From the IMG/VR virus record IMGVR_UViG_3300028482_000001, positions 16,556 to 80,555 of that record: a DNA stretch of 64,000 nucleotides; one strand, 5' to 3'. A program made the translations under genes and the position numbers. Shown here one piece after another: positions 3,197-26,895 of this stretch. Below the pieces are notes generated by a model, which was not told where the DNA came from, ran no database searches, and saw nothing but the letters and a program-made list of their open reading frames with translations. The stretch's first letter is position 1. Each line of letters begins with the position of its first letter. The DNA is from a virus (lineage: Duplodnaviria; Caudoviricetes).

Positions 3197-3360
3197 TTGA
3201 CAAATTATTTATTAAGTATTATAAATAATACTCACAGAGTAATGAAGAACGCACACCGCAGTTCTTGATTGCTCTGTCAGGGCAATCACCGATAATGTTG
3301 TAGGTGAAAACCTCTGGCACAAGTCTTTCAGCGGTGAAAAGGCTTGTGCCTTTTTTATTT
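3197..3360 (+). promoter_or_regulatory. Promoter plus structured leader with attenuator
   Basis: TTGACA-17-TATAAA; hairpin 3235-3276; terminator ggcacaagtctttca/tgaaaaggcttgtgcc + T6. Confidence 0.7.
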
Positions 3361-3421
3361 TCCTAGTGAAGTTGCGTGTCGCCAAACTCTTAACTTCACT
3401 AGGACTTAAAGGAGGTGTCTT

Positions 3422-4177
3422 ATGACACCCACAACTACATTATCGGTAAATTTGGAAAATAGTTTACCACAAAATCAAAATCCTGTCCAACAAAATTGGT
3501 ATACAATCGAAGAATTGGCAAGTTTAAGTGGTTTTTCAGTTGAAACATTAAAACACGGAGAAAACAATCTTTCTAGTATTATGCGAATAATGAGTATTAA
3601 CTTTGAAGTTAATACTCGTTTAGGTGGTTATCACAACACAAAGAAATTCTATTCAGAAAATGTATTAAAAGCTCTTAAAGAATATCAGATTAAAAACTCT
3701 ACTCCAAATGCTGTAAAAGAAAAGTCAACTGTTATTGAAGGAAATGTTAATTTCATCCAAACAGACACTTTTAATAAAACAATACAAGGGCTTTTGGATA
3801 ATCCAGATGCTTTATTATGTCTTATAAATGAAAGTTCAAAAAGAATTCAAGCACTTAATACAAAACTCATTGAACAACAACCTAAAGCCGACTACTACGA
3901 CAAATTCATTGACAGCACAAATTTAATAGAAATCGGACATCTTGGAAAATCAACAGGAATTGGCGAACAAAAGATTTTCAAAAGATTAGTTGTAGAAGGA
4001 TATATCAAAGTTAGATATTCAACAGACGGAGTTAAATATTATGACCCTTGCTATGGGTATGAAAAATATTTCAAATCTGTATCTGTTCCTTTTTTACGAG
4101 GTGAAAAACAACTAAACAGAGAAAAGTTAATGCTTACATCAGTGGGAAACAATCAGGATGAACAGAAACAGGAATAG
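3422..4177 (+). CDS. Phage antirepressor (KilAC-like C-terminal domain)
   Basis: 'QQPKADYYDKFIDSTNLIEIGHLGK..GIGEQKIFKRL' antirepressor C-terminal pattern; RBS aaggagg. Confidence 0.75.
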   Translation: MTPTTTLSVNLENSLPQNQNPVQQNWYTIEELASLSGFSVETLKHGENNLSSIMRIMSINFEVNTRLGGYHNTKKFYSENVLKALKEYQIKNSTPNAVKEKSTVIEGNVNFIQTDTFNKTIQGLLDNPDALLCLINESSKRIQALNTKLIEQQPKADYYDKFIDSTNLIEIGHLGKSTGIGEQKIFKRLVVEGYIKVRYSTDGVKYYDPCYGYEKYFKSVSVPFLRGEKQLNREKLMLTSVGNNQDEQKQE

Positions 4178-4299
4178 GTTTTGAACATTCTTTGCAAAAA
4201 TGAATTACTTTTTGATAATTGTCAAAATATTCAAAACCTATTTCTAATTTTTTATTACAATACGGACATTTTAGGGGAGTTTTTAACATAATAAATTCC

Positions 4300-4548
4300 T
4301 TAACTTAGATTATTTTGGAGGTAATTAAGAACATCTTTTTTAGTGATTTCTGGTTCAATTCCTGTAACCAGGAATTCTACAGTAGTACCAAGTGATTGAG
4401 CTATTTTTACTGATGTAATTGCATCAGGGATTGTGTTTCTTCCAATCCAATTTTCAATAGTTCTTTCAGGTAAGTCTAACATAACAGAAAACTGTTTTTG
4501 AGTAATTTTTTTTTCTTTTAGAAGAAATTTAACATTATTCCAAAACAT
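4300..4548 (-). CDS. XRE HTH repressor
   Basis: 'ITQKQFSVMLDLPERTIENWIGRNTIPDA..IAQSLGTTVEFLVTG'. Confidence 0.85.
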   Translation of the reverse strand: MFWNNVKFLLKEKKITQKQFSVMLDLPERTIENWIGRNTIPDAITSVKIAQSLGTTVEFLVTGIEPEITKKDVLNYLQNNLS

Positions 4549-4554
4549 AAAATT

Positions 4555-4633
4555 TACTTAAAAATAAGTATTTTGTGTTGACAAAATACTTAAACAAGAG
4601 TATAAATATAATATAAATACTTAAAAATAAGTA
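4555..4633 (+). promoter_or_regulatory. Promoter with three operator palindromes
   Basis: TTGACA (4578)-17-TATAAA; tacttaaaaataagta at 4555-4570 and 4618-4633, imperfect copy at 4587-4602. Confidence 0.75.
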
Positions 4634-4689
4634 TTTGTAAAAACAGATTGTTAATCTGTAATAAAAAAGGATTGTTAATCCTTCATTAG

Positions 4690-4807
4690 AAAACTTATGC
4701 TAATCTGCACATACATAAGTTTTTTTAAACTTTTATGCCTTATAAGGTTTCCTTGTGCAGAAGCTACACTTGTTGTAGTTTGGAAAATCTTATAGGGCAT
4801 TTTTTTT
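4690..4807 (+). promoter_or_regulatory. Structured leader / attenuator
   Basis: Hairpin 4690-4723; terminator stem 4735-4752/4782-4800 + T-tract. Confidence 0.65.
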
Positions 4808-4868
4808 ACAAAAAAGTCAGAATGAGCCACTCGCCAAAGTTCTTCATTCTGACTTTTGGAGGTTCACC

Positions 4869-5336
4869 ATGCCTACAATTAAAGTATCGGTAAACTCAAA
4901 AAATAGTTTACTACAAATTTCAAATTTTGAAAACTATCAGTTTTCAGAAAAGGAACTTGATCTTTTATCTCCAAAAGAGATAAGTAAAATCTTTAGAAAA
5001 GTAAAAGATTCCCTTCATGATTTAAAACAGGAAAAGACTGAATTTATTGCAACAACAAGAATGATTCCTGGCTCAAACATCTACAACAGAGAAATGGCAG
5101 CATTGAATTTACGCCGCAATAAAATTATGAAAAATTACATGATGCTAGAAAGAAGATTGACTGATGCCACACAGGAATTTCGGGAAAGAATTAGAAATTC
5201 AGAAAACGAAGAATTTCAATTTCTTCTTAAATTTTGGAAAAACGCAAAGAAACTAAACATTGATTTCTTTAATTCAGTTACAGAAGAAACATTAAAAACA
5301 AACGCTTTGCCTGAATCATTAAAAGGAGGGAACTAA
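4869..5336 (+). CDS. Hypothetical coiled-coil protein
   Basis: 155-aa ORF with RBS ggagg; first gene of the operon. Confidence 0.7.
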   Translation: MPTIKVSVNSKNSLLQISNFENYQFSEKELDLLSPKEISKIFRKVKDSLHDLKQEKTEFIATTRMIPGSNIYNREMAALNLRRNKIMKNYMMLERRLTDATQEFRERIRNSENEEFQFLLKFWKNAKKLNIDFFNSVTEETLKTNALPESLKGGN

Positions 5337-5338
5337 CT

Positions 5339-6130
5339 ATGAACGAATTAAAACTAATCAAACAACAAGAAATCTTAGGAAAAGATTTTAAAGTATACGG
5401 AGATGTAGAAAATCCATTTTTCAAAGCATCTGACGTTGCAGAGTGGATTGATTACTCATGGAAAGACAGCAGACAAGTAAACAGAGATGTATCTAAAATG
5501 TTATCTCTTGTTGACGAAGATGAAAAAACAAAATGTACTTTAAGTCTTGGTGGGGAAAACTATTCCCATGGTGGTTTAAGAGAAAATACAGAAATTTGGT
5601 TTTTAACAGAAAACGGTTTATACGAAGTTCTTATGCTTTCAAGAAAACCAATCGCAAAAGCCTTTAAGAAAGAAGTTAAAAAGGTTCTTCATTCTCTTAG
5701 AGTAAATGGCGGCTATATTGCAGGACAAGAACAACTTTCAGAAGATGAAATTATTGCAAATGCTCTAGTAGTTGCTCATAAAATACTTGCTAAAAGAGAA
5801 GCTGCTATCGCAGAGATGAAACCAAAAGTAGACTTCTACAACAAAGTAACAGGTTCACCTGATACTTGCGATATAAAAGAAGTTGCAAAAATTCTTAATT
5901 ATAAGAATATCGGCAGAAACAAACTTTTTGAAATATTGCGAGATGAAAAAATCTTAGACAATCACAATCAACCATATCAGAAATATATTGACGCTGGATA
6001 TTTCAGAGTTATCGAAACAAAGTTTGAAGATAAAGACGGAGATACCCACATCAACCTTAAAACAGTTGTTTTTCAAAAGGGTGTTGATTTTATCAAAAAA
6101 ACATTAGACAAACTTCAAAAGAGAGGGTAA
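5339..6130 (+). CDS. BRO-N + KilAC antirepressor
   Basis: BRO-N 'YGDVENPFFKASDVA..LTENGLYEVLMLSRKPIAKAFKKEV' and KilAC 'PKVDFYNKV..IKEVAKIL..IGRNKLFEILR..TVVFQKG'. Confidence 0.9.
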   Translation: MNELKLIKQQEILGKDFKVYGDVENPFFKASDVAEWIDYSWKDSRQVNRDVSKMLSLVDEDEKTKCTLSLGGENYSHGGLRENTEIWFLTENGLYEVLMLSRKPIAKAFKKEVKKVLHSLRVNGGYIAGQEQLSEDEIIANALVVAHKILAKREAAIAEMKPKVDFYNKVTGSPDTCDIKEVAKILNYKNIGRNKLFEILRDEKILDNHNQPYQKYIDAGYFRVIETKFEDKDGDTHINLKTVVFQKGVDFIKKTLDKLQKRG

Positions 6131-6132
6131 CT

Positions 6133-6897
6133 ATGAACGAATTACAGATTATTGAAAAAGACGGAATTCAAGCAGTTTCTGCTCGTGAATTGTACAAAGG
6201 TTTAGAAATTTCAAAAAGATTTTCTGAATGGTGGAAAACAAATTCTAAAGAATTTGTTGAAAACGAAGATTTTTATGGGGTGTACCTAAAGGTACAGGGC
6301 AACCAATATGGTGGCGAACAAGAAATTCAAGACTATGCAATTTCTATTGATATGGCTAAATCAATCTGTTTAATGTCTAGAACAGAAATTGGTAAAACAT
6401 ATCGCAACTACTTAATCAAACTTGAAAAAGCCTGGAACACACCAGAAGCTGTAATGTCTAGAGCCTTGCAACTTGCAAACCAAACACTTGATAACATCAG
6501 ACATCAAGTAGCAATTATGCAGCCCAAAGCAGTTGTTTATGATGAATTAGTAGACCGTTCTAAGACAATGAACTTTAGAGATATGGCTGCAAAACTGGGT
6601 ATGAAACAAACTGAATTTATGACAATTTTGAAAGCAAAATATGTTTATAAAAATTCTATTGGAGAATACAGAGCAAAAGCAGAATATCAACAATACTTCA
6701 CTTTAAGAACTTTTAACAAATCAACAGACAAAACTGGTGAACAACTTCTATTCAATATGGAAGGGATTACATACTTTATTAACAAGTATAAGGTTGAAAA
6801 AGACACTTGTAAACATTGTGGTGAAAAAGTGCCTGCTGGCCATTACTGTTGTTTACAATGTTGGAACGAATACGAAGGAGGAAAGGAAATTGACTAA
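6133..6897 (+). CDS. AntA/AntB-type antirepressor with KilAC-like C-terminus
   Basis: 'AVSARELYKGLEISKRFSEW..DYAISIDMAKSICLMSRTEIGK' and 'QPKAVVYDEL'. Confidence 0.85.
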   Translation: MNELQIIEKDGIQAVSARELYKGLEISKRFSEWWKTNSKEFVENEDFYGVYLKVQGNQYGGEQEIQDYAISIDMAKSICLMSRTEIGKTYRNYLIKLEKAWNTPEAVMSRALQLANQTLDNIRHQVAIMQPKAVVYDELVDRSKTMNFRDMAAKLGMKQTEFMTILKAKYVYKNSIGEYRAKAEYQQYFTLRTFNKSTDKTGEQLLFNMEGITYFINKYKVEKDTCKHCGEKVPAGHYCCLQCWNEYEGGKEID

Positions 6898-7066
6898 ATA
6901 TGAATATTATATTGCAAAATCGAATGAGTGTAGAAACAAATCAGTTATTTTTACACAAAAAAACGAGCCAAAATTAGCAGAGTTTTATAAAAATGCATCA
7001 GTCGGATTTGAAAAAAAAGCTAAGAGTTTAACAATAAAAGAAGCTAGGAGTTTATATGAATGTTAA
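6890..7066 (+). CDS. Small hypothetical protein
   Basis: TTG start after RBS aagga, overlapping neighbours (3' part of ORF 6737-7066). Confidence 0.55.
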   Translation: MTKYEYYIAKSNECRNKSVIFTQKNEPKLAEFYKNASVGFEKKAKSLTIKEARSLYEC

Positions 7067-8036
7067 AATAACAAAAGTTGATCAAGAAAAAGAGCCTGAA
7101 AAATGGCTTAATTTAAGAAAAACAGGGATTGGGGGATCTGATGCAGGCGCATTAATGGGAATGAATGAATATTCATCTCCATTAACTGTTTATTTGCAAA
7201 AAAAAGGTTTGAATCAAGGAATTGATTCAGAAATTCTTAGATGGGGGCATCTTTTAGAAAATCCAATTAGGGAAGAAGTGGCTACTAAATTTGGTGTAAC
7301 TGTTACAATTCCAGAGGGAATGTATACAAGTGAAGAACATTCTTTCATGAATGCCAATTTAGATGGCTTAGTTGAAGGAACTGTTTCCGTGAAAAATAAA
7401 ACAGTTACAGGATTAGGGGGCTTAGAGATTAAGACCTCGAATGGGCAAGGATTTGGTGAATACGAAATTCCTGATAGTTACTATTGCCAGGTACAGCATT
7501 ATATGGCAGTTACAGGATTAAATTGGTTTTTACTTGCCGCCTTTATGAAAGCATCATGTACAATTCAATATTACATCATTGAAAAAGATGATGAGTTTAT
7601 TGAAAAATTAATAGAAGTTGAAAAAGACTTTTGGGAAAATTATGTACTAAAGGATGTTTTTCCTGCCCCATCTGGTGCTGACAATGAAAATCAATTAATA
7701 AAAAAATTGCCGATTTCTAACAACGTTGAGTTAGATGAATCGTTATTAGAAATAATTGAATATAAAAAAGAATTAGATGAGCAGATTAAAGAGCTCAAAA
7801 AAAATCAAGAAATTGCAAAAAATCAAATATTACTAGCAATGCATAAAGCGAGCAATAGTTCTAATTCTGATAGCAAAAGTGTTGTGGCCGAATTAGGTGA
7901 TTTTAAGATTACGTATTCTACGGTTATTAAAAAATCTGTAGATTCTGACCTTCTTAAAAAAGAAGGTATTTATGACATGTACACTAAAGAAACAAAAACA
8001 AAAACTTTGCTAATAACAAAAAAGAAGGACGTTTAG
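7056..8036 (+). CDS. yqaJ: YqaJ-like viral recombinase exonuclease
   Basis: 'WLNLRKTGIGGSDAG..ANLDG..LEIKT..YYCQVQHYMAVTG' lambda-exonuclease/YqaJ motifs. Confidence 0.92.
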   Translation: MNVKITKVDQEKEPEKWLNLRKTGIGGSDAGALMGMNEYSSPLTVYLQKKGLNQGIDSEILRWGHLLENPIREEVATKFGVTVTIPEGMYTSEEHSFMNANLDGLVEGTVSVKNKTVTGLGGLEIKTSNGQGFGEYEIPDSYYCQVQHYMAVTGLNWFLLAAFMKASCTIQYYIIEKDDEFIEKLIEVEKDFWENYVLKDVFPAPSGADNENQLIKKLPISNNVELDESLLEIIEYKKELDEQIKELKKNQEIAKNQILLAMHKASNSSNSDSKSVVAELGDFKITYSTVIKKSVDSDLLKKEGIYDMYTKETKTKTLLITKKKDV

Positions 8037-8355
8037 AAATAAACGAAGATTATTTTTTACTACTGTTCGTTGAACAGTTTAAAACTATATCGTCGATATG
8101 GTTTTATATCTTGTGGGCAACCGACAAAACAGGTTGCAAGAAAATATATTAATAACCTTGTCCGTATGGACTGGTATTATGTTGGCAACTTACATAAAGT
8201 TGCACGTTGACACTTATTTTATAAATTTGTTTAAATTACCTTTCCGGTGGGTGGGGCGACACATTTACCATAACACACGTGCGAAACGCAAAACCGGTAT
8301 TTTATATCAGGGTGATGAAACCCTGTATTACTTTTAATATGGGAGTAAAAATAAA

Positions 8356-8949
8356 ATGAAATTTCTTTGGTGTGATGTGGAAACAACAGGATTAAATATT
8401 GAAAACGCAGCTCCATTTCAGATAGCATTTATATTTGTATCTACTCAAAACATAGGAGGGAAAAACGTAAAAAGCGAATCTGAAAGAGTATTTTTATTAA
8501 ATTGTCTTGATATGGCACATGTTGAATTTAATGAAGAAGCTGCAAAAATTCATGGAATTTCAAAAGAAACTATACAAAATTATGAAAATTCACACGATGT
8601 TTGCACAAAAATAATGAATTTTCTATCAGATTGTGTAAATTTTAGAGAAGTTGAAAACATGTATTTCTGTGGTTATAACTGTGAATTTGACTGGAATCAT
8701 TTAATTAGTTTGTTTAATCATCATGGAATGGATTTTGGGCAATTTTTTGAAAAACGGTTAGATGTATTTAACCAGGTAAAAAAAGCAGGTGCAAATAAGA
8801 TTTTACCTTATTTGCCAAACAGAAAATTAACTACAATATGTGAGCATTTGAAAATTGATTTAAGCAATGCTCATGATGCATTAGCAGATATTAAGGCAAC
8901 TAGAGATGTTGCAAAAAGCCTTGCTACTTTGGGAGTTCCATTAGAATAA
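8356..8949 (+). CDS. DEDDh 3'-5' exonuclease (DnaQ-like)
   Basis: 'DVETTGL', 'GYNCEFD', 'AHDALADIKAT' Exo I-III motifs. Confidence 0.9.
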   Translation: MKFLWCDVETTGLNIENAAPFQIAFIFVSTQNIGGKNVKSESERVFLLNCLDMAHVEFNEEAAKIHGISKETIQNYENSHDVCTKIMNFLSDCVNFREVENMYFCGYNCEFDWNHLISLFNHHGMDFGQFFEKRLDVFNQVKKAGANKILPYLPNRKLTTICEHLKIDLSNAHDALADIKATRDVAKSLATLGVPLE

Positions 8950-9038
8950 TTTTTTTTATAAGAAAAAAAGTATTAATTTGAATTCCTACTATTGACAAAG
9001 GTATTAAATTGAATTTATAAATATATAAGGAGATTTTT

Positions 9039-9980
9039 ATGGATCTATCGAAAAAAAACGAAACAAAACAACTAAATCAACCAAAAGGGCAATCGTTAAG
9101 AAATTGGATTGCCAAAATGAGTGATCAAATTAAATGTGCATTGCCACAGAATATCACTCCGGAAAGAATGATGAGAATTGCATTAACAGCGATCTCAAAA
9201 GATGAAAAATTAGCATCATCTACACCAGAAAGTTTTCTTGGTGCATTGCTTACATCAGCTCAATTAGGGCTTGAATGTAATACTCCATTAGGTCAGTCTT
9301 ACTTAATTGCTTTTTATAACAATAAGAAAGATTGCCTTGAAACTCAATTTCAATTGGGGTATCAAGGCTTGATTGATCTTTGCTATAGAACAAATCAATA
9401 CCAAACAATACAGGCTAGAATTGTATATGATGGTGATATATTTGAATATGAATACGGGATGAACGAACAGCTTATTCATAAACCAATGGGGAAAACAGCA
9501 AAGCCTGTTGCTGTATACGCCTACTACAAATTGGTAAATGGAGCAAAGGCATTCGAAGTAATGACCTGGGAGCAAGTGGAACACCACGCAAAGAAATATT
9601 CGCAGGCAGTAAGCAAGGGATATTCTTCCCCTTGGTCTACTGACCCTGAAAGTATGGCAAAGAAAACAGTGCTTAAAAAAGTGTTGAAATATGCGCCAAA
9701 GACAGTTGAAGTTGCAGAAGCTGTAAACAGTGATTCAGCAATTATCACTGCAAATACTATTCAGGATGGCAATACAATTAGTGTTGTGAAAGACTTTAAC
9801 TTTGATATAGGTGAAGTTGAAACAGTAGAATCTAAGCCTGTTAATGCAGTTGAGCACGCAGAAATTAAAGGAATTGAACAAGCATTTGATAATCCTGCAA
9901 CAATTTCAGAAGAAGAAAATAAAATGATTGATAAAGCTTTTGAAGATTCTCAACTAAAGTTTGGCGGAGATGTTTTTTAA
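9039..9980 (+). CDS. recT: RecT single-strand annealing recombinase
   Basis: 'TPERMMRIALT..SFLGALLTSAQLGLE..LGQSYLIAF..GYQGLIDL..MAKKTVLK'. Confidence 0.93.
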   Translation: MDLSKKNETKQLNQPKGQSLRNWIAKMSDQIKCALPQNITPERMMRIALTAISKDEKLASSTPESFLGALLTSAQLGLECNTPLGQSYLIAFYNNKKDCLETQFQLGYQGLIDLCYRTNQYQTIQARIVYDGDIFEYEYGMNEQLIHKPMGKTAKPVAVYAYYKLVNGAKAFEVMTWEQVEHHAKKYSQAVSKGYSSPWSTDPESMAKKTVLKKVLKYAPKTVEVAEAVNSDSAIITANTIQDGNTISVVKDFNFDIGEVETVESKPVNAVEHAEIKGIEQAFDNPATISEEENKMIDKAFEDSQLKFGGDVF

Positions 9981-10784
9981 TTGAAAATTACGAGTTTTTT
10001 TCATGGGCAGTTAATACACAATAAAATTGTCTTAGTTCCAAATGATCCTCGTGATAATTTTTTAATTGAAAAACTATTCAATTCAAAATATCAACGAGAA
10101 TGTAGGACAGAAAAAGAAATTTTATTGAAATGTGAAATAGATGCGGCTTTTCAGCATAGAACTTTCAAACAATTAGCTGCTGTATGGAAACTTGTAGAAA
10201 TAATTTTCTACTCGGAAAACGGGAGAAAGCCTACGGAAAGCGAAAAATATGAGTTATATCTTGATTTATTGGAATTATACGCGGATAAAATTCCGAACAG
10301 ATACAACAATGAATTGAGAGTAATTCATATTTCCGAAGCCAACACAATGGCCGCGGCTCATTTTATTTCCGGATTACTTTATCATTTAAATACAATGTGT
10401 AATTTGACAAACGATCTTGAAGCATCTGTTAGAAAAATATTGTATGAGTGGGAAATTTGGCGTGGGAAACAAATAGTAGACTTCGCCGATGAAGTATCTG
10501 TAACGGAATTAAGAAATAGAATTAGAGTTTCAGAAGCCACAGGAAGGCAACCTGTAGAGTTTCATCACATTATATCAAGAGGTGCCTGTCCTTTAGCAAT
10601 TGATAAAGCATGGAATTTGATTGCCTTAACCGATGAAGAACACAGGTTTTTCCATTCTGCAGGAATTGGAAAGTTTTTAGAGCGTTATCCACATCTTAAA
10701 AACAGATTTGAAAGGGCAAAGATAAAGTGTGAAGAATTACAAAAAAGTAGTTCTGTATTAGCAAAGGAGGTTCTTTGTGAATAA
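9981..10784 (+). CDS. Hypothetical protein with C-terminal HNH-like (DUF968-like) motif
   Basis: 'EFHHIISRGA..NLIALTDEEHRFFH..G'; TTG start. Confidence 0.5.
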   Translation: MKITSFFHGQLIHNKIVLVPNDPRDNFLIEKLFNSKYQRECRTEKEILLKCEIDAAFQHRTFKQLAAVWKLVEIIFYSENGRKPTESEKYELYLDLLELYADKIPNRYNNELRVIHISEANTMAAAHFISGLLYHLNTMCNLTNDLEASVRKILYEWEIWRGKQIVDFADEVSVTELRNRIRVSEATGRQPVEFHHIISRGACPLAIDKAWNLIALTDEEHRFFHSAGIGKFLERYPHLKNRFERAKIKCEELQKSSSVLAKEVLCE

Positions 10785-11112
10785 AAATAAATCAAAATTT
10801 TCTCATAAAGATTGGTATGAGAAAAACAAAGAAATTATAAAAGAAAAACAACGTCAATATTATGAAAAGATTAAGGAAACAAAACAAAAAAAAGCCTGGC
10901 TAAAACGAAATGTCGGAAAAAATGAAAATGAATATGAATATAAAAAACGAGGGAAATATGATTTAAAAGAATATGTAGCTTTTAATAACGCTCAAAGAAT
11001 AATTGATAAAAAAACTGCAATTATGAAGCAATTAAAAATTACTTCGGAGTTATTTTATGAATTATTAGAAAATGGAACTTCACATAAAGGATGGTGTATC
11101 GATGAAGCTTAA
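10777..11112 (+). CDS. Basic hypothetical protein
   Basis: Operon-coupled ORF. Confidence 0.6.
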   Translation: MNKNKSKFSHKDWYEKNKEIIKEKQRQYYEKIKETKQKKAWLKRNVGKNENEYEYKKRGKYDLKEYVAFNNAQRIIDKKTAIMKQLKITSELFYELLENGTSHKGWCIDEA

Positions 11113-14079: not shown

Positions 14080-14433
14080 ATGAAAAAAATTTATGTATCA
14101 GGTAAAATAGGGAATTTGCCTAGAAGTGTTTGGGAAATGAAGTTTCTTAGAATTAAAAACTTATTGGCAAATAAATATGATGAAGTTGTTACACCTAGCG
14201 AAATTTGCAAAAAAGTTGAAAAAGAATTTGGAGTGGTAGATTATGCAACATATTTAGCCGCCGATATTGTTACAATTTCGGATTGTAGTCATATTTTTAT
14301 GATGAAAGACTGGAGAAAATCCCCAGGCGCAAAAGTAGAAAGAGCATATGCAAAAGCGTGTGGAATTAAAGTAGTCTATGAAAGGTGGGAGAATTTAAAA
14401 ACAAAATGGGAATGTATTTTCAAAAAAAATTAA
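14080..14433 (+). CDS. DUF4406-family protein (deoxyribosyltransferase-like fold)
   Basis: 'KIYVSGKI..DCSHIFMMKDWRKSPGAKVERAYAKACGIKV'. Confidence 0.85.
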   Translation: MKKIYVSGKIGNLPRSVWEMKFLRIKNLLANKYDEVVTPSEICKKVEKEFGVVDYATYLAADIVTISDCSHIFMMKDWRKSPGAKVERAYAKACGIKVVYERWENLKTKWECIFKKN

Positions 14434-14753
14434 AATATAAAAATATAAAAGTTGAAATTGATGGTATCAAGTTTGATTCAAAAAAAGAAGCAAATAAATA
14501 TCAAGAATTAATGATGTTGCAAAAAGCAGGTGTTATTAGCAATTTGCAAAGGCAAGTAAAATTCGAAGTTTGCCCTAAATCGGCGACAGAGAGAGCATCA
14601 TTTTACGTCGCGGACTTCGTTTATACGCAAGCAGACGGAAAAAAAATTATTATGGACGTAAAGTCTGAAATTACAAGAAAATTGGCAGTGTATATTTTAA
14701 AAAGAAAGTTGGTTAAAAATCTGTATAAAGATTATATTTTTTTGGAAAGTTAA
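14385..14753 (+). CDS. DUF1064-family PD-(D/E)XK nuclease
   Basis: 'KYKNIKVEIDGIKFDSKKEA..LQRQVKF..YVADFVY..DVKS'. Confidence 0.88.
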   Translation: MGEFKNKMGMYFQKKLKYKNIKVEIDGIKFDSKKEANKYQELMMLQKAGVISNLQRQVKFEVCPKSATERASFYVADFVYTQADGKKIIMDVKSEITRKLAVYILKRKLVKNLYKDYIFLES

Positions 14754-19160: not shown

Positions 19161-19208
19161 ATTTTTTTATCCTTGTTTAATCACATTCCTTTTTATGTAT
19201 CGGAATAA

Positions 19209-19277
19209 TACTACATTTTATTAAATAAAAGTTGACAAGGTCAACAATTTGTAGTATAAATATTTTATGATACTACA
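19209..19277 (+). promoter_or_regulatory. Promoter with TACTACA operator half-sites
   Basis: TTGACA(19232)-17-TATAAA; tactaca at 19209 and 19271, inverted tgtagta at 19250. Confidence 0.6.
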
Positions 19278-19283
19278 AATTGT

Positions 19284-20003: not shown

Positions 20004-20755
20004 AAAAAATAAAAACAATGAAGAAGTGTCAAAACCTACCACAGCTTACACTTCTTCAAAAGGAGCTACTAATGAATAACTCACTTATTTTATCGGATGT
20101 TAAGACTGAAAACTTAACTACAATGTCTACAAAAGAACTTGCAAATTTTCTAAAAACAAGTCCAAAAGTTATTTTAGAAAATGCAAAAAAATGTTTGCCT
20201 AATAAAAAAATTGAAAATGGTAAACCAACTTATTGGGATAAAGCAGAAGTAACTGTTTTAATTTATTTTATGCAAAATAATAAAACGACAATGTTTAATT
20301 CTCAAGCAAGTCAAGCTTTTACCGACGGGTTAAGGTCTGTTTCTACCGACCTAACACCAGCATTAAAATTAAAAAAGGCACTAGATTTAGCACAAGAAGC
20401 ATACGAAGAAGAACTACAAATAATTAGAGCAAGAGCAGAACTTGCAGAAAGTGTAGTAAATCGTATTGCAGATGGTAAAGGTTGTTACACAATGAACCAA
20501 ACAGCAAAAGCTCTAAAATTGCCTTACGGAAATATTAAATTGTTTGAAAAATTAAGAGCTATGCAGATTCTTAATCTTGATAACTCACCAAAACAAGAAC
20601 AAATTAACAATGGAAATTTTAAGGTAGTTGTAAAGTTTATTAACGAAAAAATCGGAAACAAACCTGTAACACTTACAACTAGTAAAGGACTTGTTTATTT
20701 AGCAAAAAAATTAAATACAGAAATTGATGAAAGTGTTTTACCCGATTACGAGTAG
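20000..20755 (+). CDS. Antirepressor with KilAC C-terminus
   Basis: 'YTMNQTAKALKLPYGNIKLFEKLR..TLTTSKGLVYL'. Confidence 0.8.
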   Translation: MKKIKTMKKCQNLPQLTLLQKELLMNNSLILSDVKTENLTTMSTKELANFLKTSPKVILENAKKCLPNKKIENGKPTYWDKAEVTVLIYFMQNNKTTMFNSQASQAFTDGLRSVSTDLTPALKLKKALDLAQEAYEEELQIIRARAELAESVVNRIADGKGCYTMNQTAKALKLPYGNIKLFEKLRAMQILNLDNSPKQEQINNGNFKVVVKFINEKIGNKPVTLTTSKGLVYLAKKLNTEIDESVLPDYE

Positions 20756-20893
20756 AAACTAACTTAAAGGAAGGTAAATATGGAAACAATTAAAAGCTTT
20801 ATTAAGTACTTGAAATTGTCAAAAAAGTATAAGGATGCAATAAGAAAAGTGATAGATAGTTTTTATGATGAATACAAATTGAAAAACTAACAC

Positions 20894-20992
20894 TTGAAAC
20901 AATTATAAACATGTAATAAAATTAATATGAACGATGTGTCAAAAAGACAGTCATTTATCTTTCATGGGATAAGTGGCTGTCTTTTTTTTTTG
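20894..20992 (+). promoter_or_regulatory. Late leader motif copy A (promoter + GATGTG + terminator hairpin)
   Basis: TTGAAA-17-TAAAAT; gatgtgtc; aagacagtca...tggctgtctt + T-tract. Confidence 0.8.
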
Positions 20993-21008
20993 TTTAGGAG
21001 TAATAAAA

Positions 21009-22631
21009 ATGGGCGGTTTTAAAGAAATTGATATAAAAAAAGAATTAAGAAAAAGGGTTGCATATAACCAAAAAGAAAATGGAAACGGTATTTTCAATAA
21101 AGATTTTTTCCTGGGGCAAGGAACGCTTGATAATGCAGATTCTATTTTTTATGATCCTTATTTTGTGTCTGAAAATGCTTTCCATGGAATTAGAACTATA
21201 TCACGTGTACAATTCGGGGGAATCCCATGTGCAACTTTAAGGAAAGTAGCTCAAAAAGCATGGATTATTAATACTTGTATTAATCACATCCAAAAGAAAA
21301 TCAAACCATTCTTAAAACCTGTAACAGATAGAAATTCTAGGGGCTTTTTGATTTATAAAAAGGGTGAAGATTTAACAAAGACACAAAAAGCCGATAAAAC
21401 GAGAGATGAAATTAGAGATTTTATTATTAACTGTGGGAACTTTGAAGATGCAGATAGAGATGATTTTGTTAAATATTGTATAAAAATTGTGCGTGATAAT
21501 TTAACTATTGATCAAGTTGCAACAGAATTACAGTACACAAAAGATAAAAAGTTATGTGCTTTTTATGCTGTAGATGCTGCAACAGTTGAAAAAGTAATCC
21601 CAAATAAAAATGTAAAAACAGATTGGAAATATATTCAAGTTGTAGATGGAATTCCTGCGGCCGGATATACAACTGATACAATGCTTTTTGATTTTGAAAA
21701 TCCAAGAACAGATATTTACCATTCTCAATATGGGTATTCATATGTAGAACAAGCAGTAGACTTAATAACATCATTTATTAATACTTTTGTATATAATGCC
21801 GGAAACTTTACAGAAAACAAACTTCCTAAAGGTATGCTTTTAATTAGCGGAGATGCAACTTCTGAACGAATTGAAGAAATGGAAGATTATATTGCTGAAA
21901 TTATGAGTGGTGGGCCACTTAATCAGTGGAGAATCCCAATAATTCCAGCAGGAGATAAAGAAGCAAGTATTGAATGGAAACAACTAAACGGAAACAACAG
22001 AGAAATGGAATTCCAACAATGGAATGACTATTTAACTAGTGCTGTAGTTGCTATGTTTGGTTGTTCAATGGATGAACTAGGAATTCAAAGCCAAAAATCA
22101 CAAACAATGTTTGAAAACTCTGGAGCAGACAGAATGTCGGCTAGTAAATCTTTGTTGTTAGGTGATTTATTAACATTTCTTGAATCTTACATAAATAAAA
22201 TCGTTAAAAAAATAAATCCTGATTATGTATTAGAATTTGTAGGATATGAAAAAGACAATCCAAACACTGTAGCAGATTTAGACGAAAAAGAAGTTAGAAC
22301 CTGGAAAAGTATTAACGAAAAAAGAGCAGAAAAAGGATTAGACCCTATAGACTTGTCAAAGATTGAAAACGGGGCAGACTTACCAATGAATGGTCAACTT
22401 GTACAAATGTTCCAGGCTGCACAAGCTCAAACAGGTATGGGCGATATGGGGGGAATGGGTGAAGAAGGAACAGAGGATAATGATGATTGGCAGAATTATG
22501 GAGATGAAGAAGGCACTAACGAAGAATCTAACAATGATTACAGTGGTTTAGAAGATTCCAAAAATACTAATGCTTATAGTGGACTTGAAGAAAGTTCAGA
22601 AGATATAAACAAATCATTATTAAGGATTTAG
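21009..22631 (+). CDS. Portal protein (SPO1/Twort-like)
   Basis: 'IDQVATE..AVDAATV..NFTENKLPKGML..QWRIPI..MEFQQW..AMFG..DELG..FVG'; follows TerL; acidic tail. Confidence 0.88.
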   Translation: MGGFKEIDIKKELRKRVAYNQKENGNGIFNKDFFLGQGTLDNADSIFYDPYFVSENAFHGIRTISRVQFGGIPCATLRKVAQKAWIINTCINHIQKKIKPFLKPVTDRNSRGFLIYKKGEDLTKTQKADKTRDEIRDFIINCGNFEDADRDDFVKYCIKIVRDNLTIDQVATELQYTKDKKLCAFYAVDAATVEKVIPNKNVKTDWKYIQVVDGIPAAGYTTDTMLFDFENPRTDIYHSQYGYSYVEQAVDLITSFINTFVYNAGNFTENKLPKGMLLISGDATSERIEEMEDYIAEIMSGGPLNQWRIPIIPAGDKEASIEWKQLNGNNREMEFQQWNDYLTSAVVAMFGCSMDELGIQSQKSQTMFENSGADRMSASKSLLLGDLLTFLESYINKIVKKINPDYVLEFVGYEKDNPNTVADLDEKEVRTWKSINEKRAEKGLDPIDLSKIENGADLPMNGQLVQMFQAAQAQTGMGDMGGMGEEGTEDNDDWQNYGDEEGTNEESNNDYSGLEDSKNTNAYSGLEESSEDINKSLLRI

Positions 22632-22635
22632 GGCG

Positions 22636-22809
22636 ATGAATGAAATTTGTAAAAATTGTACTTGGTGGGTAGAAGAAACTGACAAAATCGGAGAGTACGA
22701 ACATAAGGAAGCTCTAAAACAAAATAAAGGTTTTTGTTTGTGCCAAGATTTGTTTACAAATAAAGAACCTGATGATGAATGTGATTGTGGAGAATTTAAT
22801 CATGAGTAG
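22636..22809 (+). CDS. Small Cys-rich hypothetical protein
   Basis: 57 aa MNEICKNCTWW...CLC...CDC; below the ORF-track cutoff. Confidence 0.5.
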   Translation: MNEICKNCTWWVEETDKIGEYEHKEALKQNKGFCLCQDLFTNKEPDDECDCGEFNHE

Positions 22810-23002
22810 AAGTTATCGAAAAACACCAATAGTAAAAGATAATGGCAAACACAAACAATACTGGAAAAGACAAGCAAATAAAAGATGTCGCAAAGAAAGA
22901 GTTGGTAGTGGTGGGGAATATAAAAAGCATTATGATCAATACTCTATTTGTGATTGGAAGTTTAGATTAAAGAATTTGTGTAAAAAGAAAATGTCAAAAT
23001 AA
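22802..23002 (+). CDS. Small basic phage protein
   Basis: 'MSRSYRKTPI..KRQANKRCRK' type seen in many phages. Confidence 0.6.
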   Translation: MSRSYRKTPIVKDNGKHKQYWKRQANKRCRKERVGSGGEYKKHYDQYSICDWKFRLKNLCKKKMSK

Positions 23003-23058
23003 GGGAAATTAATGGAAAATTAAGGGAAATTTCCCTTGTTTATTTAAAAGGAGATAAA

Positions 23059-26000
23059 ATGGGAAAACTAGTAATTAAAAAATCTGTTGCAAATCAAATA
23101 ACAAGCAAATTAAAAACTCATAAAAATGATGATATAACGCCCGAATTTGCAGAAAATCTGCAAAAATCGGACTTATTTTCTGAAAATAAGCAAGTTTCAG
23201 TCAAATTACAGTCAAATAAAAATATAGGTGTAACTCCTGATGATTGTTATTATGATTTAGATAATCCCACAGAGAAATTTTATTATGATTTGAAAATGAA
23301 ATTTGCTCAGAGTGATAAAGCAGATGATATTGAGAAATCACATAAATATATAAGACGATGGAAAATGAATAATGGTGAATGGAGATATGAATATCCAAAA
23401 GGGGTTGATAAAAAAATACATTCATTTAGAGATGTAACAACAGCTCTAACAAATAAGACAACAGAAATAAAAGATATTCAACCATTAACAACAGAAAAAC
23501 AGATTGATGCAGAGCTTGAAAGATTAACAAAACTTTCAGAAGAAGGAAAACTTACTTGTCCGGCTTTAGGAAATGCAAATATTTACATTGAAGATATGAC
23601 TACAGAACATGCAGAAAAAACAAACGGTGTATTTAGAACAAAGGAAGCTAAAATTCATAAGTTACAATATCTTTCTTTTGTTGAAGATGTTCTTAAAAAT
23701 GGTATTCTATTTATGAAATCACGTAAATACAATCATGCTTGGTCATTAGATAAGATTTCAGAAAGAGAAAGAACTACTTATGGAATTATTAACAAGGTTA
23801 CATATTTTGACAAAAAGAAAAATAAAAACATAACATGTGGAATGGAAATTGTTGTTGCGTGGGATAATGAAAGAAAAAGGTTTGTGTTTTCATTTATTGA
23901 TAGACAAATAAAAAAATCCTTGTTATTTAACAAGGATTTTCAAACGACCACTTTCGAGGCGGGTCAGGTAGGTGCTTGTAAAACAGAGGCTTTTTCTACC
24001 ACCGACTCTATAATACCACATTTGATAAATTTGTCAAGTAGAAATGTAAATAAATCCCTTACTTATTCTGGTTATAAATTACAAGGTAGAACTAGACTTT
24101 ATGGCATGGATATTTCCATTGAAAATAAAAAAGGAAGTTATAGATGTGGTGTAGATTCAGATGGTCATAAGTGGGAAATTTTAATGCACTATGATTATGG
24201 ATATATTAGGGGAACTGTAGGAGTAGACAAAGATCACTTAGATTGTGTAAGCCCAGAAACAAAAATCTTAATGGCTGATTATACTGAAAAAAGTGCTGCA
24301 GATATAAAAGAAGGCGACGAACTTATTGGAATTAAATTAGAAACACAACAGCATAAGCAGCGAAAACAGATTAAAACTAAAGTTATTCATGTCAAAAAAG
24401 GTATGGATGATATGCTAGATATTACTCTTGAAAATGGTGTAAAACTGAGAACTACTAAAGGTCATTTACATTATTATTTTCAAGGTAAGACAAGAGATAA
24501 GTATTGGAAGCGTGCTGATGAATTAAAAATTGGTGATAAACTTGTAATGATTTACAATCATCATAATTTTGAAGAAACAGAAGATTATAAAAAGGGTTAT
24601 CTCTTTGGAGCTTATATCGGCGATGGATGTTATAATTTTGATGAATCAAAACAGGTTTATTGTGATATTAGAAAAGGCGTTGCTTTTATTGATGTTATAC
24701 ATAGAGTAAAACAATATTGGAATGATTTAGGTTTAGAAACATCTAAGATAAGAATAGACAAACCTAGACAGACAAATTCTTTATTAGCAGATGGTAGAAA
24801 AGTTATATCTAAAATGGATTTAGCTATATTATCTATTAGAGGTATAAACAAAATAAGATATATTAAATCAATTCTTGTAAAAAATCCTAAATCTTTTGAA
24901 TGGTGTCGTGGTTATATCGCTGGTTTATTTGATACAGATGGATGCTTGAATTGTAGACATGAATTCCTGATAACTCAAACCAAAAATCAAGATGAATTTA
25001 TGAAATTTACAATTGAATGTATTAATAAATTGGGTTATCAAGCAGTAAAAAGATACAATGAAATTAAATTACATACAGATTATATGGCTGATAATATAAC
25101 AATGGAGTTTACTCAAATTATTAAGCCAGCTCTTGAAAAGAAAAGAAACTTTTTAGGCCAAACTTATAGATATGAGCCATTGGAAATTGTGGATATAAAG
25201 CCATATACCGGGGAGTTTGTTGCTATTCAGACTGATGAACAGACATATATTGCAAATGGACTTGTAACACATAATTGCTATGTTGGACCAGATAAAAACA
25301 CAAAAAAAGTTTATGTAATTCATCAAAACAATCCTATTACTCATAAATACGATGAAGATAAATGTATGTTGTGTTTTGAAAGTGCAGATGCAGCCAAAAA
25401 AGCATATATGAAACAATATGATAGACCAGGATTTTTTGGAAGTATGGAAACATTAACTGTAGAACAATTCAAAACTTTTGTATTTTCAAAACAAGGTAGT
25501 AGAATACACAAATCCTTTGATATTGAAATAACTGATATTACTGAAAATAATAAGCAAAGAAAAGTTGAGCAAGTAGAAAAGGCATTAAACGCTATTTATA
25601 ATAACAAACCTTTTGTAATTGAGCATATTTCAAAAAAATTAGATTTCTCAAGAAAATATAATGATATTTTAATGAGAATTACTGATTTTGATAAAAACAA
25701 AATTGAAAAAGCTGTACATTCATTGGCATTTACATTAGATACTAAAGTTAAGGCAAGTAAAGGAGAGGCCTTTGTATATGCCAGTCAGGAAGATTTAACA
25801 AATCAGATTGTTAATGAAATTACTGAAAAAACAAAAAAGATTTATAATTTCGTAATTTCATTTTTTGACTTACCTGAAATTACTATCGTAAGAAAAGCAA
25901 ATTTAATTCATAAAGGGAAAATAATATACAATCCTGAAACAGGAGAACCTGTGAAAAAAGCAGAGTGGGATAAATTTGTAGAAGAATTAGAAAAAATGCT

Positions 26001-26706
26001 TAATAAAAATTATATGGGGTATGGTGAAAAAATAGTTTTAAAAGGTGAAACGTTAGGACTGATTTTAGATCGTCTTGCAAAAACTAATTCTTTTGAAGCA
26101 ATTCAGAAGAAAAAACTTTCGGACATTGTATATAAACGAAAACATTTTGATTGGATTTCGGATGATATAAAAAATTTAAAAACTATTATTGGTGAACCTA
26201 TATCAAGGGAACGGGCAGCAAGAATTGAAGTTGCGATGCAGAGTGTAGGGCAAAGAATATCAAGGGTAAAAGATTCTCTTAAAAATGAAATCCAGCAAGT
26301 TATTATTGACGGAATTAAAAACAAAGAATCGAAGAGAGTTGTTTCTCAAAATTTGTTTGATAAGTGTGTAGGACTTAATCGAGATTTTCAAAAAATTGCA
26401 GATAGTGAAATCCAAAATACAGTTAATAATGCATATATCAAAGAAGAAGTTTTTAATTCAGACGAAAATGAAAAAATCTATTTTAAAAGGTTTGAAGTGA
26501 TAGATGATAACACTTGTTCAAAATGTAAAAAAATAAAAGGGAAACTTGCACTTTATAGCAAAGTTCCTTTGGATGATGAACATATCAAGGATGAGTATGC
26601 TGATTATGCAATATGGGAAGGTAAAGTAGATGGAGATTTGCCTATGGGGATATTGCATCCTTATTGTCGTGGATCGTGGGTTAGGTATTATCCGGAGGTT
26701 GATTGA
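23059..26706 (+). CDS. Polyvalent protein: BECR/LPD3-like nuclease + InPase-like domain (intein-split) + MuF-like head morphogenesis domain
   Basis: InPase motifs 'ISIENKKGSYRCGVDSDGHKW..YGYIRGTVGVDKDHLD|CYVGP..YDEDKCMLCF'; C-terminal 'C..C...LHPYCR' MuF motif. Confidence 0.75.
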   Translation: MGKLVIKKSVANQITSKLKTHKNDDITPEFAENLQKSDLFSENKQVSVKLQSNKNIGVTPDDCYYDLDNPTEKFYYDLKMKFAQSDKADDIEKSHKYIRRWKMNNGEWRYEYPKGVDKKIHSFRDVTTALTNKTTEIKDIQPLTTEKQIDAELERLTKLSEEGKLTCPALGNANIYIEDMTTEHAEKTNGVFRTKEAKIHKLQYLSFVEDVLKNGILFMKSRKYNHAWSLDKISERERTTYGIINKVTYFDKKKNKNITCGMEIVVAWDNERKRFVFSFIDRQIKKSLLFNKDFQTTTFEAGQVGACKTEAFSTTDSIIPHLINLSSRNVNKSLTYSGYKLQGRTRLYGMDISIENKKGSYRCGVDSDGHKWEILMHYDYGYIRGTVGVDKDHLDCVSPETKILMADYTEKSAADIKEGDELIGIKLETQQHKQRKQIKTKVIHVKKGMDDMLDITLENGVKLRTTKGHLHYYFQGKTRDKYWKRADELKIGDKLVMIYNHHNFEETEDYKKGYLFGAYIGDGCYNFDESKQVYCDIRKGVAFIDVIHRVKQYWNDLGLETSKIRIDKPRQTNSLLADGRKVISKMDLAILSIRGINKIRYIKSILVKNPKSFEWCRGYIAGLFDTDGCLNCRHEFLITQTKNQDEFMKFTIECINKLGYQAVKRYNEIKLHTDYMADNITMEFTQIIKPALEKKRNFLGQTYRYEPLEIVDIKPYTGEFVAIQTDEQTYIANGLVTHNCYVGPDKNTKKVYVIHQNNPITHKYDEDKCMLCFESADAAKKAYMKQYDRPGFFGSMETLTVEQFKTFVFSKQGSRIHKSFDIEITDITENNKQRKVEQVEKALNAIYNNKPFVIEHISKKLDFSRKYNDILMRITDFDKNKIEKAVHSLAFTLDTKVKASKGEAFVYASQEDLTNQIVNEITEKTKKIYNFVISFFDLPEITIVRKANLIHKGKIIYNPETGEPVKKAEWDKFVEELEKMLNKNYMGYGEKIVLKGETLGLILDRLAKTNSFEAIQKKKLSDIVYKRKHFDWISDDIKNLKTIIGEPISRERAARIEVAMQSVGQRISRVKDSLKNEIQQVIIDGIKNKESKRVVSQNLFDKCVGLNRDFQKIADSEIQNTVNNAYIKEEVFNSDENEKIYFKRFEVIDDNTCSKCKKIKGKLALYSKVPLDDEHIKDEYADYAIWEGKVDGDLPMGILHPYCRGSWVRYYPEVD
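23910..24037 (-). ncRNA. Antisense promoter plus ~94-nt sRNA with terminator (copy 2)
   Basis: Minus-strand TTGACA(24037-24032)-16-TGnTATTAT; terminator aaaatccttgtt/aacaaggatttt + U7. Confidence 0.6.
24244..25275 (+). mobile_element. 344-aa intein with LAGLIDADG homing endonuclease
   Basis: Starts 'CVSPETKILMAD', ends 'YIANGLVTHN' followed by +1 Cys; endonuclease blocks 'YLFGAYIGDG' and 'YIAGLFDTDG'. Confidence 0.95.
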
Positions 26707-26730
26707 GTATTAAATTTAAAACTTTATCTA

Positions 26731-26895
26731 TTGACAAGTCGTAAATTTTATATTATAGTTTGATTATTAGTATTAATTTTAATACTAGTTGTTTTAAATA
26801 AAGAGTTGCGTATTTGTTTAAGACTATTACTAACCTATTATCTTTTTTCAACGCAACCCTAGATGACTAGGTGAAAAAAGGTGATAGGTTTTTTA
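26731..26895 (+). promoter_or_regulatory. Promoter, operator palindrome and structured attenuator leader
   Basis: TTGACA-17-TATAGT; tagtattaattttaatacta; terminator 26832-26850/26872-26890 + T-tract. Confidence 0.7.

Follow-up and report, generated by a model that had tools for sequence, protein, structure and literature searches.

Three related leaders in an uncultured phage genome

The DNA analyzed here, which we call the window, is a 64-kb stretch of the 80,555-bp virus record IMGVR_UViG_3300028482_000001 (IMG/VR), which has direct terminal repeats and a G+C content of ~30%. Leader 1 (3232–3421) and leader 2 (4613–4868) each lie between a divergent gene for a small helix-turn-helix (HTH) repressor and genes for antirepressor-type proteins. 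Leader 3 (26766–26917) lies within the structural region, 3′ of the gene for a 1215-amino-acid (aa) MuF/InPase/intein protein and 5′ of a DUF7666 gene (Table 1). In all three, the apical loop of an upstream hairpin (HP1) carries a short sequence, the key, that is complementary to a sequence, the lock, in the loop region of a strong predicted intrinsic terminator. These leaders probably represent a real class of structured 5′ leader RNAs, hitherto undescribed, that belongs to the early operons of a clade of temperate tailed phages, and we infer that they gate read-through into the genes that follow. Comparison with related phages shows that the predicted key/lock helix is under selection, specific to each leader and exchanged among relatives as a sequence module.

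Key/lock complementarity exceeds chance expectation

All six complementary motifs that the initial annotation had listed are present where it placed them, although the leader 2 match, sound in position and pairing, is 8 rather than 7 nucleotides (nt) long (4704–4711 with 4754–4761). In all three leaders, a stable hairpin is predicted to present the upstream motif in its apical loop, and a strong intrinsic terminator followed by a T-run holds the downstream motif in its loop region; folding also recovers the extra small hairpins described inside terminators 2 and 3. Once helices of 1–2 bp are pruned, the folds are uniform: HP1 with a 10–14-nt apical loop, then a terminator of −20 to −26 kcal/mol with 6–8 T. 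Automated minimum-free-energy folding, which now and then pairs loop nucleotides, is the source of some structure boundaries. Each leader has the stem and U-tract of an intrinsic terminator (energies in Table 1), and the fold z-scores against shuffles are −7.0, −6.6, and −5.2 for leaders 1, 2, and 3, respectively. These terminators are strong by prediction, and "attenuator" is a putative label for them. The architecture proposed as common to the three holds for the pairing itself but divides into two sub-architectures, with the lock in the terminator apical loop in leader 1 and in a 5′ bulge in leaders 2 and 3. The operator-bearing promoters called earlier are sigma70-like and do have TTGACA, a 17-nt spacer, TATAAA or TATAGT, and palindromes over the −35, −10, or +1, but as consensus-level calls their status is only plausible.

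Composition-preserving shuffles of both loops gave P = 0.0069, 0.00075, and 0.0018 for leaders 1, 2, and 3 (range per leader, ~1e-2 to 3e-4). When both strands of the whole 80.5-kb genome were scanned for strong terminators, defined as −14 kcal/mol or better with a T-run, complementarity of at least 6 nt between an upstream hairpin loop and an unpaired terminator segment was found in 3 of 60, which are these leaders; the other 57 have 5 nt or fewer. The same scan of unrelated parts of the fetched loci yielded 147 additional strong terminators, in which all G+C-containing matches of at least 6 nt belong to other leaders of the class. The concern that shuffled leaders might match equally often can thus be set aside, as shuffled or unrelated sequences give no such matches.

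Key and lock change together and are exchanged as a module

Relatives were collected by following homologues of two leader-proximal proteins to their contigs (97 homologues were retrieved for the 251-aa ANT/KilAC protein) and by adding whole records of related IMG/VR phages. The resulting set draws on the window and about nine related uncultured phage contigs, among them G001, G002, L046, L049, L059, L066, L085, and L088; the closest relative is G001 (IMGVR_UViG_3300028483_000002). It contains 19 leaders with 16 distinct key/lock pairs, and every pair is cognate (Table 2). In a 12 × 12 matrix of HP1 loops and terminator loops, the cognate pairs match over 6–8 nt (mean 7.25); for the 128 non-cognate combinations, the mean is 2.8 nt and the longest match 5 nt. 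Relatives therefore keep the loop pairing while the paired sequences co-change, which supports the earlier suggestion that one architecture with different sequences marks a cis-regulatory RNA class.

The formal count of covarying pairs is limited to the L2-type trio L059b, L066b, and G001_59891, because MAFFT did not keep the variable loops of the L1-type and L001-type leaders in register; for the remaining families, the comparison was scripted. In the trio, all 7 pseudoknot pairs are 100% paired, with 2 changed on both sides (G-C to C-G), none broken, and a stepwise series of GGCC, GGGC, and GGGG. All structure measures lie above 500 of 500 shuffles and every slid register. Between L001 and L085c, a single compensatory change converts A-U to U-A. 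The HP1 scaffold of leader 1 is conserved in L059a, G001, and L046.

The minus strand of G001 carries at least five kissing leaders between 60190 and 44985, as against three in the window, and we therefore consider the design to be a general early-operon leader of this phage group. Most members of the class precede ANT, Bro, or AntA genes and adjoin divergent genes for small HTH repressors. In L046, the promoter/operator of window leader 1 (identical over ~60 nt) is joined to the G001 address (that is, its key/lock sequence) and hairpin 3, a long hairpin described below. In L059a, a foreign promoter is joined to the address of window leader 1. From these two combinations, we conclude that operator specificity and RNA address assort independently.

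Exact-pattern scans of the L1 scaffold in IMG/VR, JGI metagenomes, and GTDB genomes returned only one known relative and chance matches in coding DNA. Matches on the minus strands of G002 (~42,666) and G004 (~143,219) lie inside coding sequence without a promoter and were discarded as false positives.

Table 1. Coordinates of leader elements and neighboring genes. Positions refer to the window unless a relative is named.
Feature	Position	Strand	Details
Divergent CI-type HTH repressor gene adjoining leader 1	2724–3062	−	112 aa; Pfam PF07022, E = 1.2e-9
Leader 1 promoter	3197–3232	+	−35 TTGACA 3197–3202; 17-nt spacer; −10 TATAAA 3220–3225; read from sequence
Leader 1 presumed operator	3215–3232		Palindrome AGTATTAT / ATAATACT across −10; inverted-repeat search
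Leader 1 HP1	3234–3277	+	Apical loop 3251–3260; key CACCGC 3254–3259; folding
Leader 1 middle hairpin	3286–3307	+	Inside 38-nt spacer; folding
Leader 1 intrinsic terminator	3316–3361	+	Stem 3316–3350, −20.2 kcal/mol; T-run 3351–3361
Leader 1 lock	3331–3336		GCGGTG, in terminator apical loop 3329–3337
Leader 1 hairpin 3	3362–3403	+	Between terminator and Shine-Dalgarno sequence (SD); loop CGCCAAA 3380–3386
Leader 1 SD and start codon	3410–3415; 3422		AGGAGG; ATG
First gene 3′ of leader 1	3422–4177	+	251 aa; C-terminal ANT/KilAC antirepressor domain, Pfam PF03374, E = 6e-9
Divergent HTH repressor gene adjoining leader 2	4300–4548	−	82 aa; Pfam HTH_3, HTH_19, Phage_CI_repr
Leader 2 promoter	4565–4639	+	−35 TTGACA 4578–4583; −10 TATAAA 4601–4606; read from sequence
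Leader 2 presumed operators	4565–4592; 4612–4639		Palindromes; inverted-repeat search
Leader 2 twin small hairpins	4643–4659; 4667–4683	+	Common core GATTGTTAATC; folding
Leader 2 HP1	4688–4725	+	Loop 4700–4713; key TCTGCACA 4704–4711; U-run 3′ of hairpin
Leader 2 terminator	4735–4808	+	Stem 4735–4800, −26.4 kcal/mol; T-run 4801–4808
Leader 2 lock	4754–4761		TGTGCAGA, in terminator 5′ bulge
Leader 2 terminator capping hairpin	4761–4781
Leader 2 hairpin 3	4811–4857	+	CGCCAAA 4832–4838; abuts SD GGAGG 4858–4862; ATG 4869
Operon 3′ of leader 2	4869–6897	+	155-aa protein; Bro-N/ANT protein 5339–6130; AntA/ANT protein 6133–6897 (Pfam)
Leader 3 promoter	26731–26789	+	TTGACA 26731–26736; TATAGT 26754–26759
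Leader 3 presumed operator	26766–26789		Palindrome around +1; resembles leader 1 operator
Leader 3 HP1	26791–26824	+	Loop 26803–26812; key GTTGCGT 26805–26811
Leader 3 terminator	26832–26900	+	Stem 26832–26890, −25.9 kcal/mol; T-run 26891–26900
Leader 3 lock	26851–26857		ACGCAAC, the entire 7-nt terminator bulge
Leader 3 terminator capping hairpin	26858–26871
First gene 3′ of leader 3	26918–27412	+	164-aa DUF7666 protein; Pfam PF24703, E = 1.5e-16
Leaders in G001	near 60150; 59891; 58459; 54721; 45078	−	59891 before ANT gene; 58459 before 156-aa gene; 54721 before RecT; 45078 of leader 3 type
GATTGTTAATC-core hairpins in relatives	L059 ~2938–2955; L066 ~1308–1326 and ~3058–3075
Hairpin 3 in relatives	L059 1441–1485; L066 ~3205–3250; G002 (L101) ~14425–14470; L001 ~2540–2590

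Table 2. Key/lock pairs of the leader set, grouped by scaffold or lock type.
Type	Key	Lock	Found in
L1 scaffold	CACCGC	GCGGTG	Window, L059a
L1 scaffold	CCATCACA	TGTGATGG	G001, L046
L1 scaffold	CTACCAGA	TCTGGTAG	L049–L054
L1 scaffold	CTTCCCT	AGGGAAG	G001
L1 scaffold	CAGGTCTT	AAGACCTG	G002
Apical-loop type	CCCACA	TGTGGG	G001, before RecT
L2 scaffold	TCTGCACA	TGTGCAGA	Window
L2 scaffold	TTAAGGCC	GGCCTTAA	L059b
L2 scaffold	TAAGCCC	GGGCTTA	L066b
L2 scaffold	TTAACCCCA	TGGGGTTAA	G001
Other bulge type	CGACAAC	GTTGTCG	L066a
Other bulge type	CTTCCAC	GTGGAAG	G002 (locus L001)
Other bulge type	CTTCCTC	GAGGAAG	L085c
Other bulge type	TAACGCC	GGCGTTA	G002
Other bulge type	TTGGTCG	CGACCAA	L088
Other bulge type	GTTGCGT	ACGCAAC	Window leader 3, G001

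Geometry of the predicted contact

The bulge-type leaders (n = 10) are regular. The HP1 loop is typically 9 nt: 1–2 nt are free on the 5′ side, and the pairing nucleotides continue as far as its 3′ end. The 7-nt bulge leaves no nucleotide over toward either the lower stem or the capping hairpin. HP1 (12–21 bp) is separated from the terminator, whose lower stem is 16–22 bp, by a spacer of 4–9 nt (7–9 nt in window leaders 2 and 3). As modeled, this geometry corresponds to an H-type pseudoknot whose 7-bp helix has its deep groove crossed by 2 nt. Since it lets HP1 lie beside the lower terminator stem, an intramolecular contact is sterically reasonable. In the L1-type leaders, it is instead the apical loop of the terminator that pairs, and in most of them a spacer of 35–43 nt holds a further hairpin.

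No promoter is visible between the leader terminators and the downstream genes, which argues that these genes depend on read-through. Mimicry of SD and anti-SD sequences by lock and key was considered and dropped, as it fits only some pairs.

A candidate RNA gate on read-through

How might such a contact be used? From an operator-controlled promoter, transcription would first produce HP1, with the key in a 9–10-nt loop (typically 2 free and 7 pairing nt). A strong intrinsic terminator would then display the lock, either as a 7-nt 5′ bulge under a capping hairpin or in an apical loop, and key and lock would form a 6–9-bp kissing or pseudoknot helix that sets terminator efficiency. The unit as a whole would act as an RNA gate that controls read-through into the genes that follow, adding a second lock to that of the protein repressor. 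We favor conditional pairing because a terminator with a 7-nt bulge otherwise gains nothing over a perfect hairpin. With no classical antiterminator in the truncated folds, the kiss is also the one candidate for a switch.

The sign of the effect could go either way. By analogy with P4, N15, and plasmid attenuators, pairing would favor termination. The modeled order of folding points to the opposite, a kiss that delays termination: the lock would be made 35–45 nt before the terminator 3′ arm, an early kiss would enclose the 5′ arm in a ring, and the 3′ arm, its end held in polymerase, could wind only about one turn around the ringed 5′ arm without threading.

It is also possible that the addresses are read between molecules. 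Because every leader RNA carries both key and lock, short leader RNAs can in principle compete with the cis contact, and the nascent key is exposed for ~25–30 nt of synthesis before its own lock emerges. Short leader RNAs of like address, if they accumulate, would probably compete with cis pairing on nascent transcripts, and this competition could provide address-specific feedback or immunity of the kind known for P4 CI, N15 CA, P1/P7 c4, and IsrK. The modular swapping of loop pairs likewise suggests that pairing may occur between molecules as well as in cis. We regard the case for an address-specific trans component, of either sign, as evenly balanced. A bolder possibility, which we raise only tentatively, is that a large uncultured group of Bacillota-type temperate phages uses the key/lock pairs as a second immunity code, written in RNA. 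The addresses of nascent leaders would be read, and their terminators switched, by the short leader RNA of a phage that is resident or co-infecting. If so, phages with a common protein repressor but differing addresses would be heteroimmune.

Several points weigh against the proposed gate. The evidence is drawn from sequence, so that termination, read-through, and short RNAs are all predictions. The lower stems of the terminators (12–22 bp) should stop transcription unaided, and the need for a kiss is not evident. Folds truncated before the 3′ arm contain no antiterminator helix that sequesters the terminator 5′ arm, which is either free or weakly and locally paired. The short, regular spacer suits a purely intramolecular fold, and a key in cis is always kinetically ahead of a partner in trans. 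Because the promoters carry operators, lysogens may contain little leader RNA, in contrast to c4 or CI RNA. Loops diverge only moderately faster than the scaffold (~55% versus 78% identity between window leader 1 and G001), and the leader 3 type has an identical key/lock pair in G001 although the stems largely differ. Finally, the class is not antirepressor-specific, as RecT, DUF6291, DnaD-like, or DUF7666 genes follow some of the leaders. Leader 3 is not tied even to its own DUF7666 gene, since the element is missing upstream of the DUF7666 genes at the 16 other loci that were checked.

Alternative explanations

The alternative that survives best is a purely cis-acting pseudoknot, which we consider an appreciable possibility, if a less probable one. 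On this account, the intramolecular helix compacts or stabilizes the terminator or the released leader RNA, and the leader is a constitutive attenuator that damps leaky transcription; the pairs would have diversified through neutral compensatory drift and recombination, or because misfolding among the leaders of one phage was avoided. The regular H-type geometry with its 4–9-nt spacers, terminators that are strong unaided, promoters that are probably repressed in lysogens, and the invariant leader 3 address are all consistent with this explanation. However, a bulged terminator that needs repair by a second hairpin would be pointless beside a perfect hairpin unless pairing were conditional. Moreover, addresses are exchanged as modules independently of the operators and are mutually orthogonal inside each genome, and modular exchange combined with orthogonality is the pattern of the trans-acting immunity RNAs P1/P7 c4 and P4 CI. 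Even if the role is purely in cis, the leaders offer a clean, testable loop-bulge pseudoknot coupled to termination.

It is improbable that the leaders are independent genes for trans-acting small RNAs (sRNAs), each consisting of promoter, HP1, and terminator, with other phage or host mRNAs as targets and internal complementarity masking the seed. Every unit does come with a promoter and a terminator, the HP1 loops are in many cases rich in C, as are the seed loops of sRNAs in Gram-positive bacteria, and the leader 3 key recurs in hairpin 3 of leader 1 (see below). Yet the downstream gene relies on read-through, with no promoter visible after the terminator; other genomic copies of keys and locks are few, none of them seen in a comparable leader or loop setting; and key and lock always co-change inside one unit.

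Countertranscript attenuation of the pT181, pIP501, or pCF10 type, in which an antisense RNA from the opposite strand kisses the nascent leader and induces the terminator, is still less probable. The layout fits, as a repressor-controlled promoter followed by a leader terminator with prominent loops is also found in pAMbeta1 and pIP501. However, leaders 1 and 2 contain no credible antisense promoter, and leader 3 has a single weak match of the sort expected by chance. In 17 of 18 leaders, the sense strand forms the more stable fold (summed energy −774 versus −580 kcal/mol for the opposite strand), and G-U pairs number 84 on the sense strand versus 25 on the other. Because of these fold energies, the G-U pairs, and the missing antisense promoter, we interpret the leaders as sense-strand RNA structures rather than as cruciforms or countertranscript targets. 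Countertranscript control would in any case not demand complementarity of key and lock within the sense RNA.

Chance complementarity, or palindromes that act in DNA as protein-binding or recombination sites with no role for RNA pairing, is the least probable explanation: although the regions are palindrome-rich and hairpin 3 behaves as a DNA-level element with its loop in both orientations, this account is contradicted by the shuffle and genome-wide controls, by sixteen co-varying pairs, by the strand asymmetry, and by the fact that 16 unrelated sequences are not readable by any single protein.

Comparison with known regulatory RNAs

Following a suggestion of the initial annotation, the leaders were searched against Rfam and match no family. 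The whole window gave 0 matches at gathering thresholds, and at E ≤ 10 the regions 2900–5000 and 26650–26950 gave only noise, with no C4 (RF01695), c4-a1b1, or IsrK. Full-text literature searches found no published description of such a leader. The leaders would function like the c4/CI/CA/IsrK group but are not a member of it, given the lack of an Rfam match, the target box in a terminator loop, and the different phage lineage.

The closest parallels are P4 CI and N15 CA (RF01695), which are also leader-encoded, with a box in an upstream hairpin that is complementary to boxes in the same leader, and in which RNA-RNA pairing governs premature termination. The N15 CA system, in the account of Ravin et al. 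1999, reportedly acts on an antirepressor operon with a repressor-controlled promoter. In P4, pairing of CI RNA with seqA and seqC leads to premature termination (PMC4825925). Here, in contrast, the target box is the loop or bulge of an intrinsic terminator, rather than seqA/seqC or a ribosome-binding site (RBS), and the leaders lack a tRNA-like fold suggestive of RNase P processing. The location typical of the C4 family, in the leader of an antirepressor or anti-immunity operon, is shared by leaders 1 and 2 and most relatives, whereas leader 3 and some relatives precede other early genes. The complementary boxes of C4-family RNAs overlap the RBS of the first gene (a2/b2 at icd) or flank the RNA (seqA/seqC); in the present leaders, the box lies 60–110 nt upstream of the SD. 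Weinberg et al. listed c4 and c4-a1b1 for Proteobacteria and their phages (PMC2864571), as opposed to the low-G+C Bacillota-type phages considered here.

In P1/P7, c4 controls ant, and short complementary loops that differ between the phages set heteroimmunity (PMC12197685). The gene under control is thus an antirepressor gene, and the specificities of the protein repressor (immC) and the RNA (immI) assort independently, as they do among the window, L046, and L059a. However, c4 is processed, uses two loop pairs (a1/b1 and a2/b2), and blocks the icd ribosome site, acting on translation with secondary effects on transcription. The present leaders have a single pair, from hairpin loop to terminator loop, and have no Rfam match. 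IsrK of Salmonella Gifsy-1 is likewise a leader with its own intrinsic terminator upstream of an antirepressor gene (anrP), and its short isoform acts in trans on its own read-through isoform (PMC4825925). IsrK differs in that it remodels structure to open an RBS, belongs to another host lineage, and has no described terminator-loop kiss; moreover, the leaders do not match it in Rfam.

In plasmids, loop-loop kissing by pT181 RNAI, pIP501 RNAIII, and pCF10 Anti-Q decides the fate of a leader terminator, and pIP501 and pAMbeta1 add a promoter-bound protein repressor. Those RNAs are opposite-strand countertranscripts that block an antiterminator, whereas here both partners are on the sense RNA; neither a credible antisense promoter nor an alternative antiterminator helix, both marks of countertranscript attenuators, was found for the leaders. 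A riboswitch or T-box was also considered and rejected: no Rfam family matches, and a ligand pocket does not fit, because the sole conserved long-range contact occurs in 16 sequence versions.

Antirepressors decide whether a prophage stays silent. To our knowledge, detailed accounts of RNA control of antirepressors are confined to a few proteobacterial phages (P1/P7 c4, P4 CI, N15 CA, P22 sar, and IsrK). The leaders would carry RNA-based anti-immunity control into a different phage lineage, with a different, terminator-built fold, and they provide a natural library of at least 16 orthogonal address pairs of 7–8 nt. If trans action proves true, it would explain heteroimmunity among otherwise near-identical gut or rumen phages and yield an RNA-only family of compact, programmable, and mutually orthogonal transcription attenuators for synthetic biology.

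Additional elements of the leaders and the phage

In window leaders 1 and 2 and in the relatives listed in Table 1, a long hairpin 3 separates the terminator from the SD. Its loop motif, YCGCCAAR, is constant on differing stems and is found in either orientation. On stems identical to those of window leader 1, L059a carries the exact reverse complement of that leader's loop; the L066b loop is an inverted form of the window leader 2 loop, and the two hairpin 3 loops of phage G002 are mutual reverse complements over ~20 nt. Hairpin 3 is also present in L048 and L055, which are without a kissing terminator. Loop inversion could reflect arm-to-arm recombination, a second inter-operon kissing pair, or a site read in double-stranded DNA; the CGCCAAR hairpin with its flip-flopping loop may be a second inter-operon contact. 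A TTGGCG partner for this loop was sought near the immunity region, and none was found. The leader 3 key, GTTGCGT, recurs at 3371–3377 in leader 1 hairpin 3, where it is split evenly between stem and loop, and read-through RNA from leader 1 could therefore in principle contact the leader 3 lock. With the number of comparisons allowed for, the chance probability of this recurrence is ~1e-2.

The GATTGTTAATC-core hairpins between promoter and HP1 of leader 2 are also found in other L2-type leaders (L059b, L066a, and L066b, with core GATTGTCAATC in L066a). These hairpins or palindromes may be a second operator or a protein-binding RNA hairpin. In leader 1 (~3269–3287), the 3′ arm of HP1 (GATTGCTCTG) has an alternative partner in the following 10 nt (CAGGGCAATC), and this pairing is kept with co-varying changes in the L1-type leaders of L059a, G001, L046, and G002 (alignments A2 and A5). 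The alternative pairing may act as an RNA switch at the base of HP1, or it may mark a palindrome in the DNA, of the form GATTGC-N9-GCAATC. An 8-codon open reading frame in the L1-type HP1 was rejected as a leader peptide, as it has no SD and is not conserved.

Upstream of the leader 1 promoter (region 3067–3160) is a second, tandem promoter, with TTGACA at 3081–3086 and TATAAA at 3104–3109, flanked by the palindromes TACTAAAAATAGTA (3067–3080) and TACTAATTTTAGTA (3089–3102). A hairpin with a 10-bp stem lies downstream of it at ~3124–3160.

Searches of cultured phage records with the leaders and adjacent proteins (megablast, blastn, and tblastn) gave no match. The portal protein has only ~29% identity, to Herelleviridae-type portals of Bacillota phages. 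We consider a low-G+C Gram-positive host, probably of the Bacillota, to be likely; the portal likeness is compatible with such a host but does not identify it.

The 1215-aa protein upstream of leader 3 (23059–26706) has an InPase domain, a LAGLIDADG-bearing intein, and a weakly matching head-morphogenesis domain of the Mu F-like type. In the late region, a promoter-proximal terminator with the conserved stem AAGGCAGTCAT...GTGGCTGCCTT occurs at 20933–20986, 30678–30712, 36916–36956, 41080–41130, 41768–41804, and 49004–49051. Most copies are ~20 nt 3′ of a strong TTGACA-17-TAAAAT promoter, ahead of portal, head, or tail genes, an arrangement that looks like a Q-type antitermination cassette.

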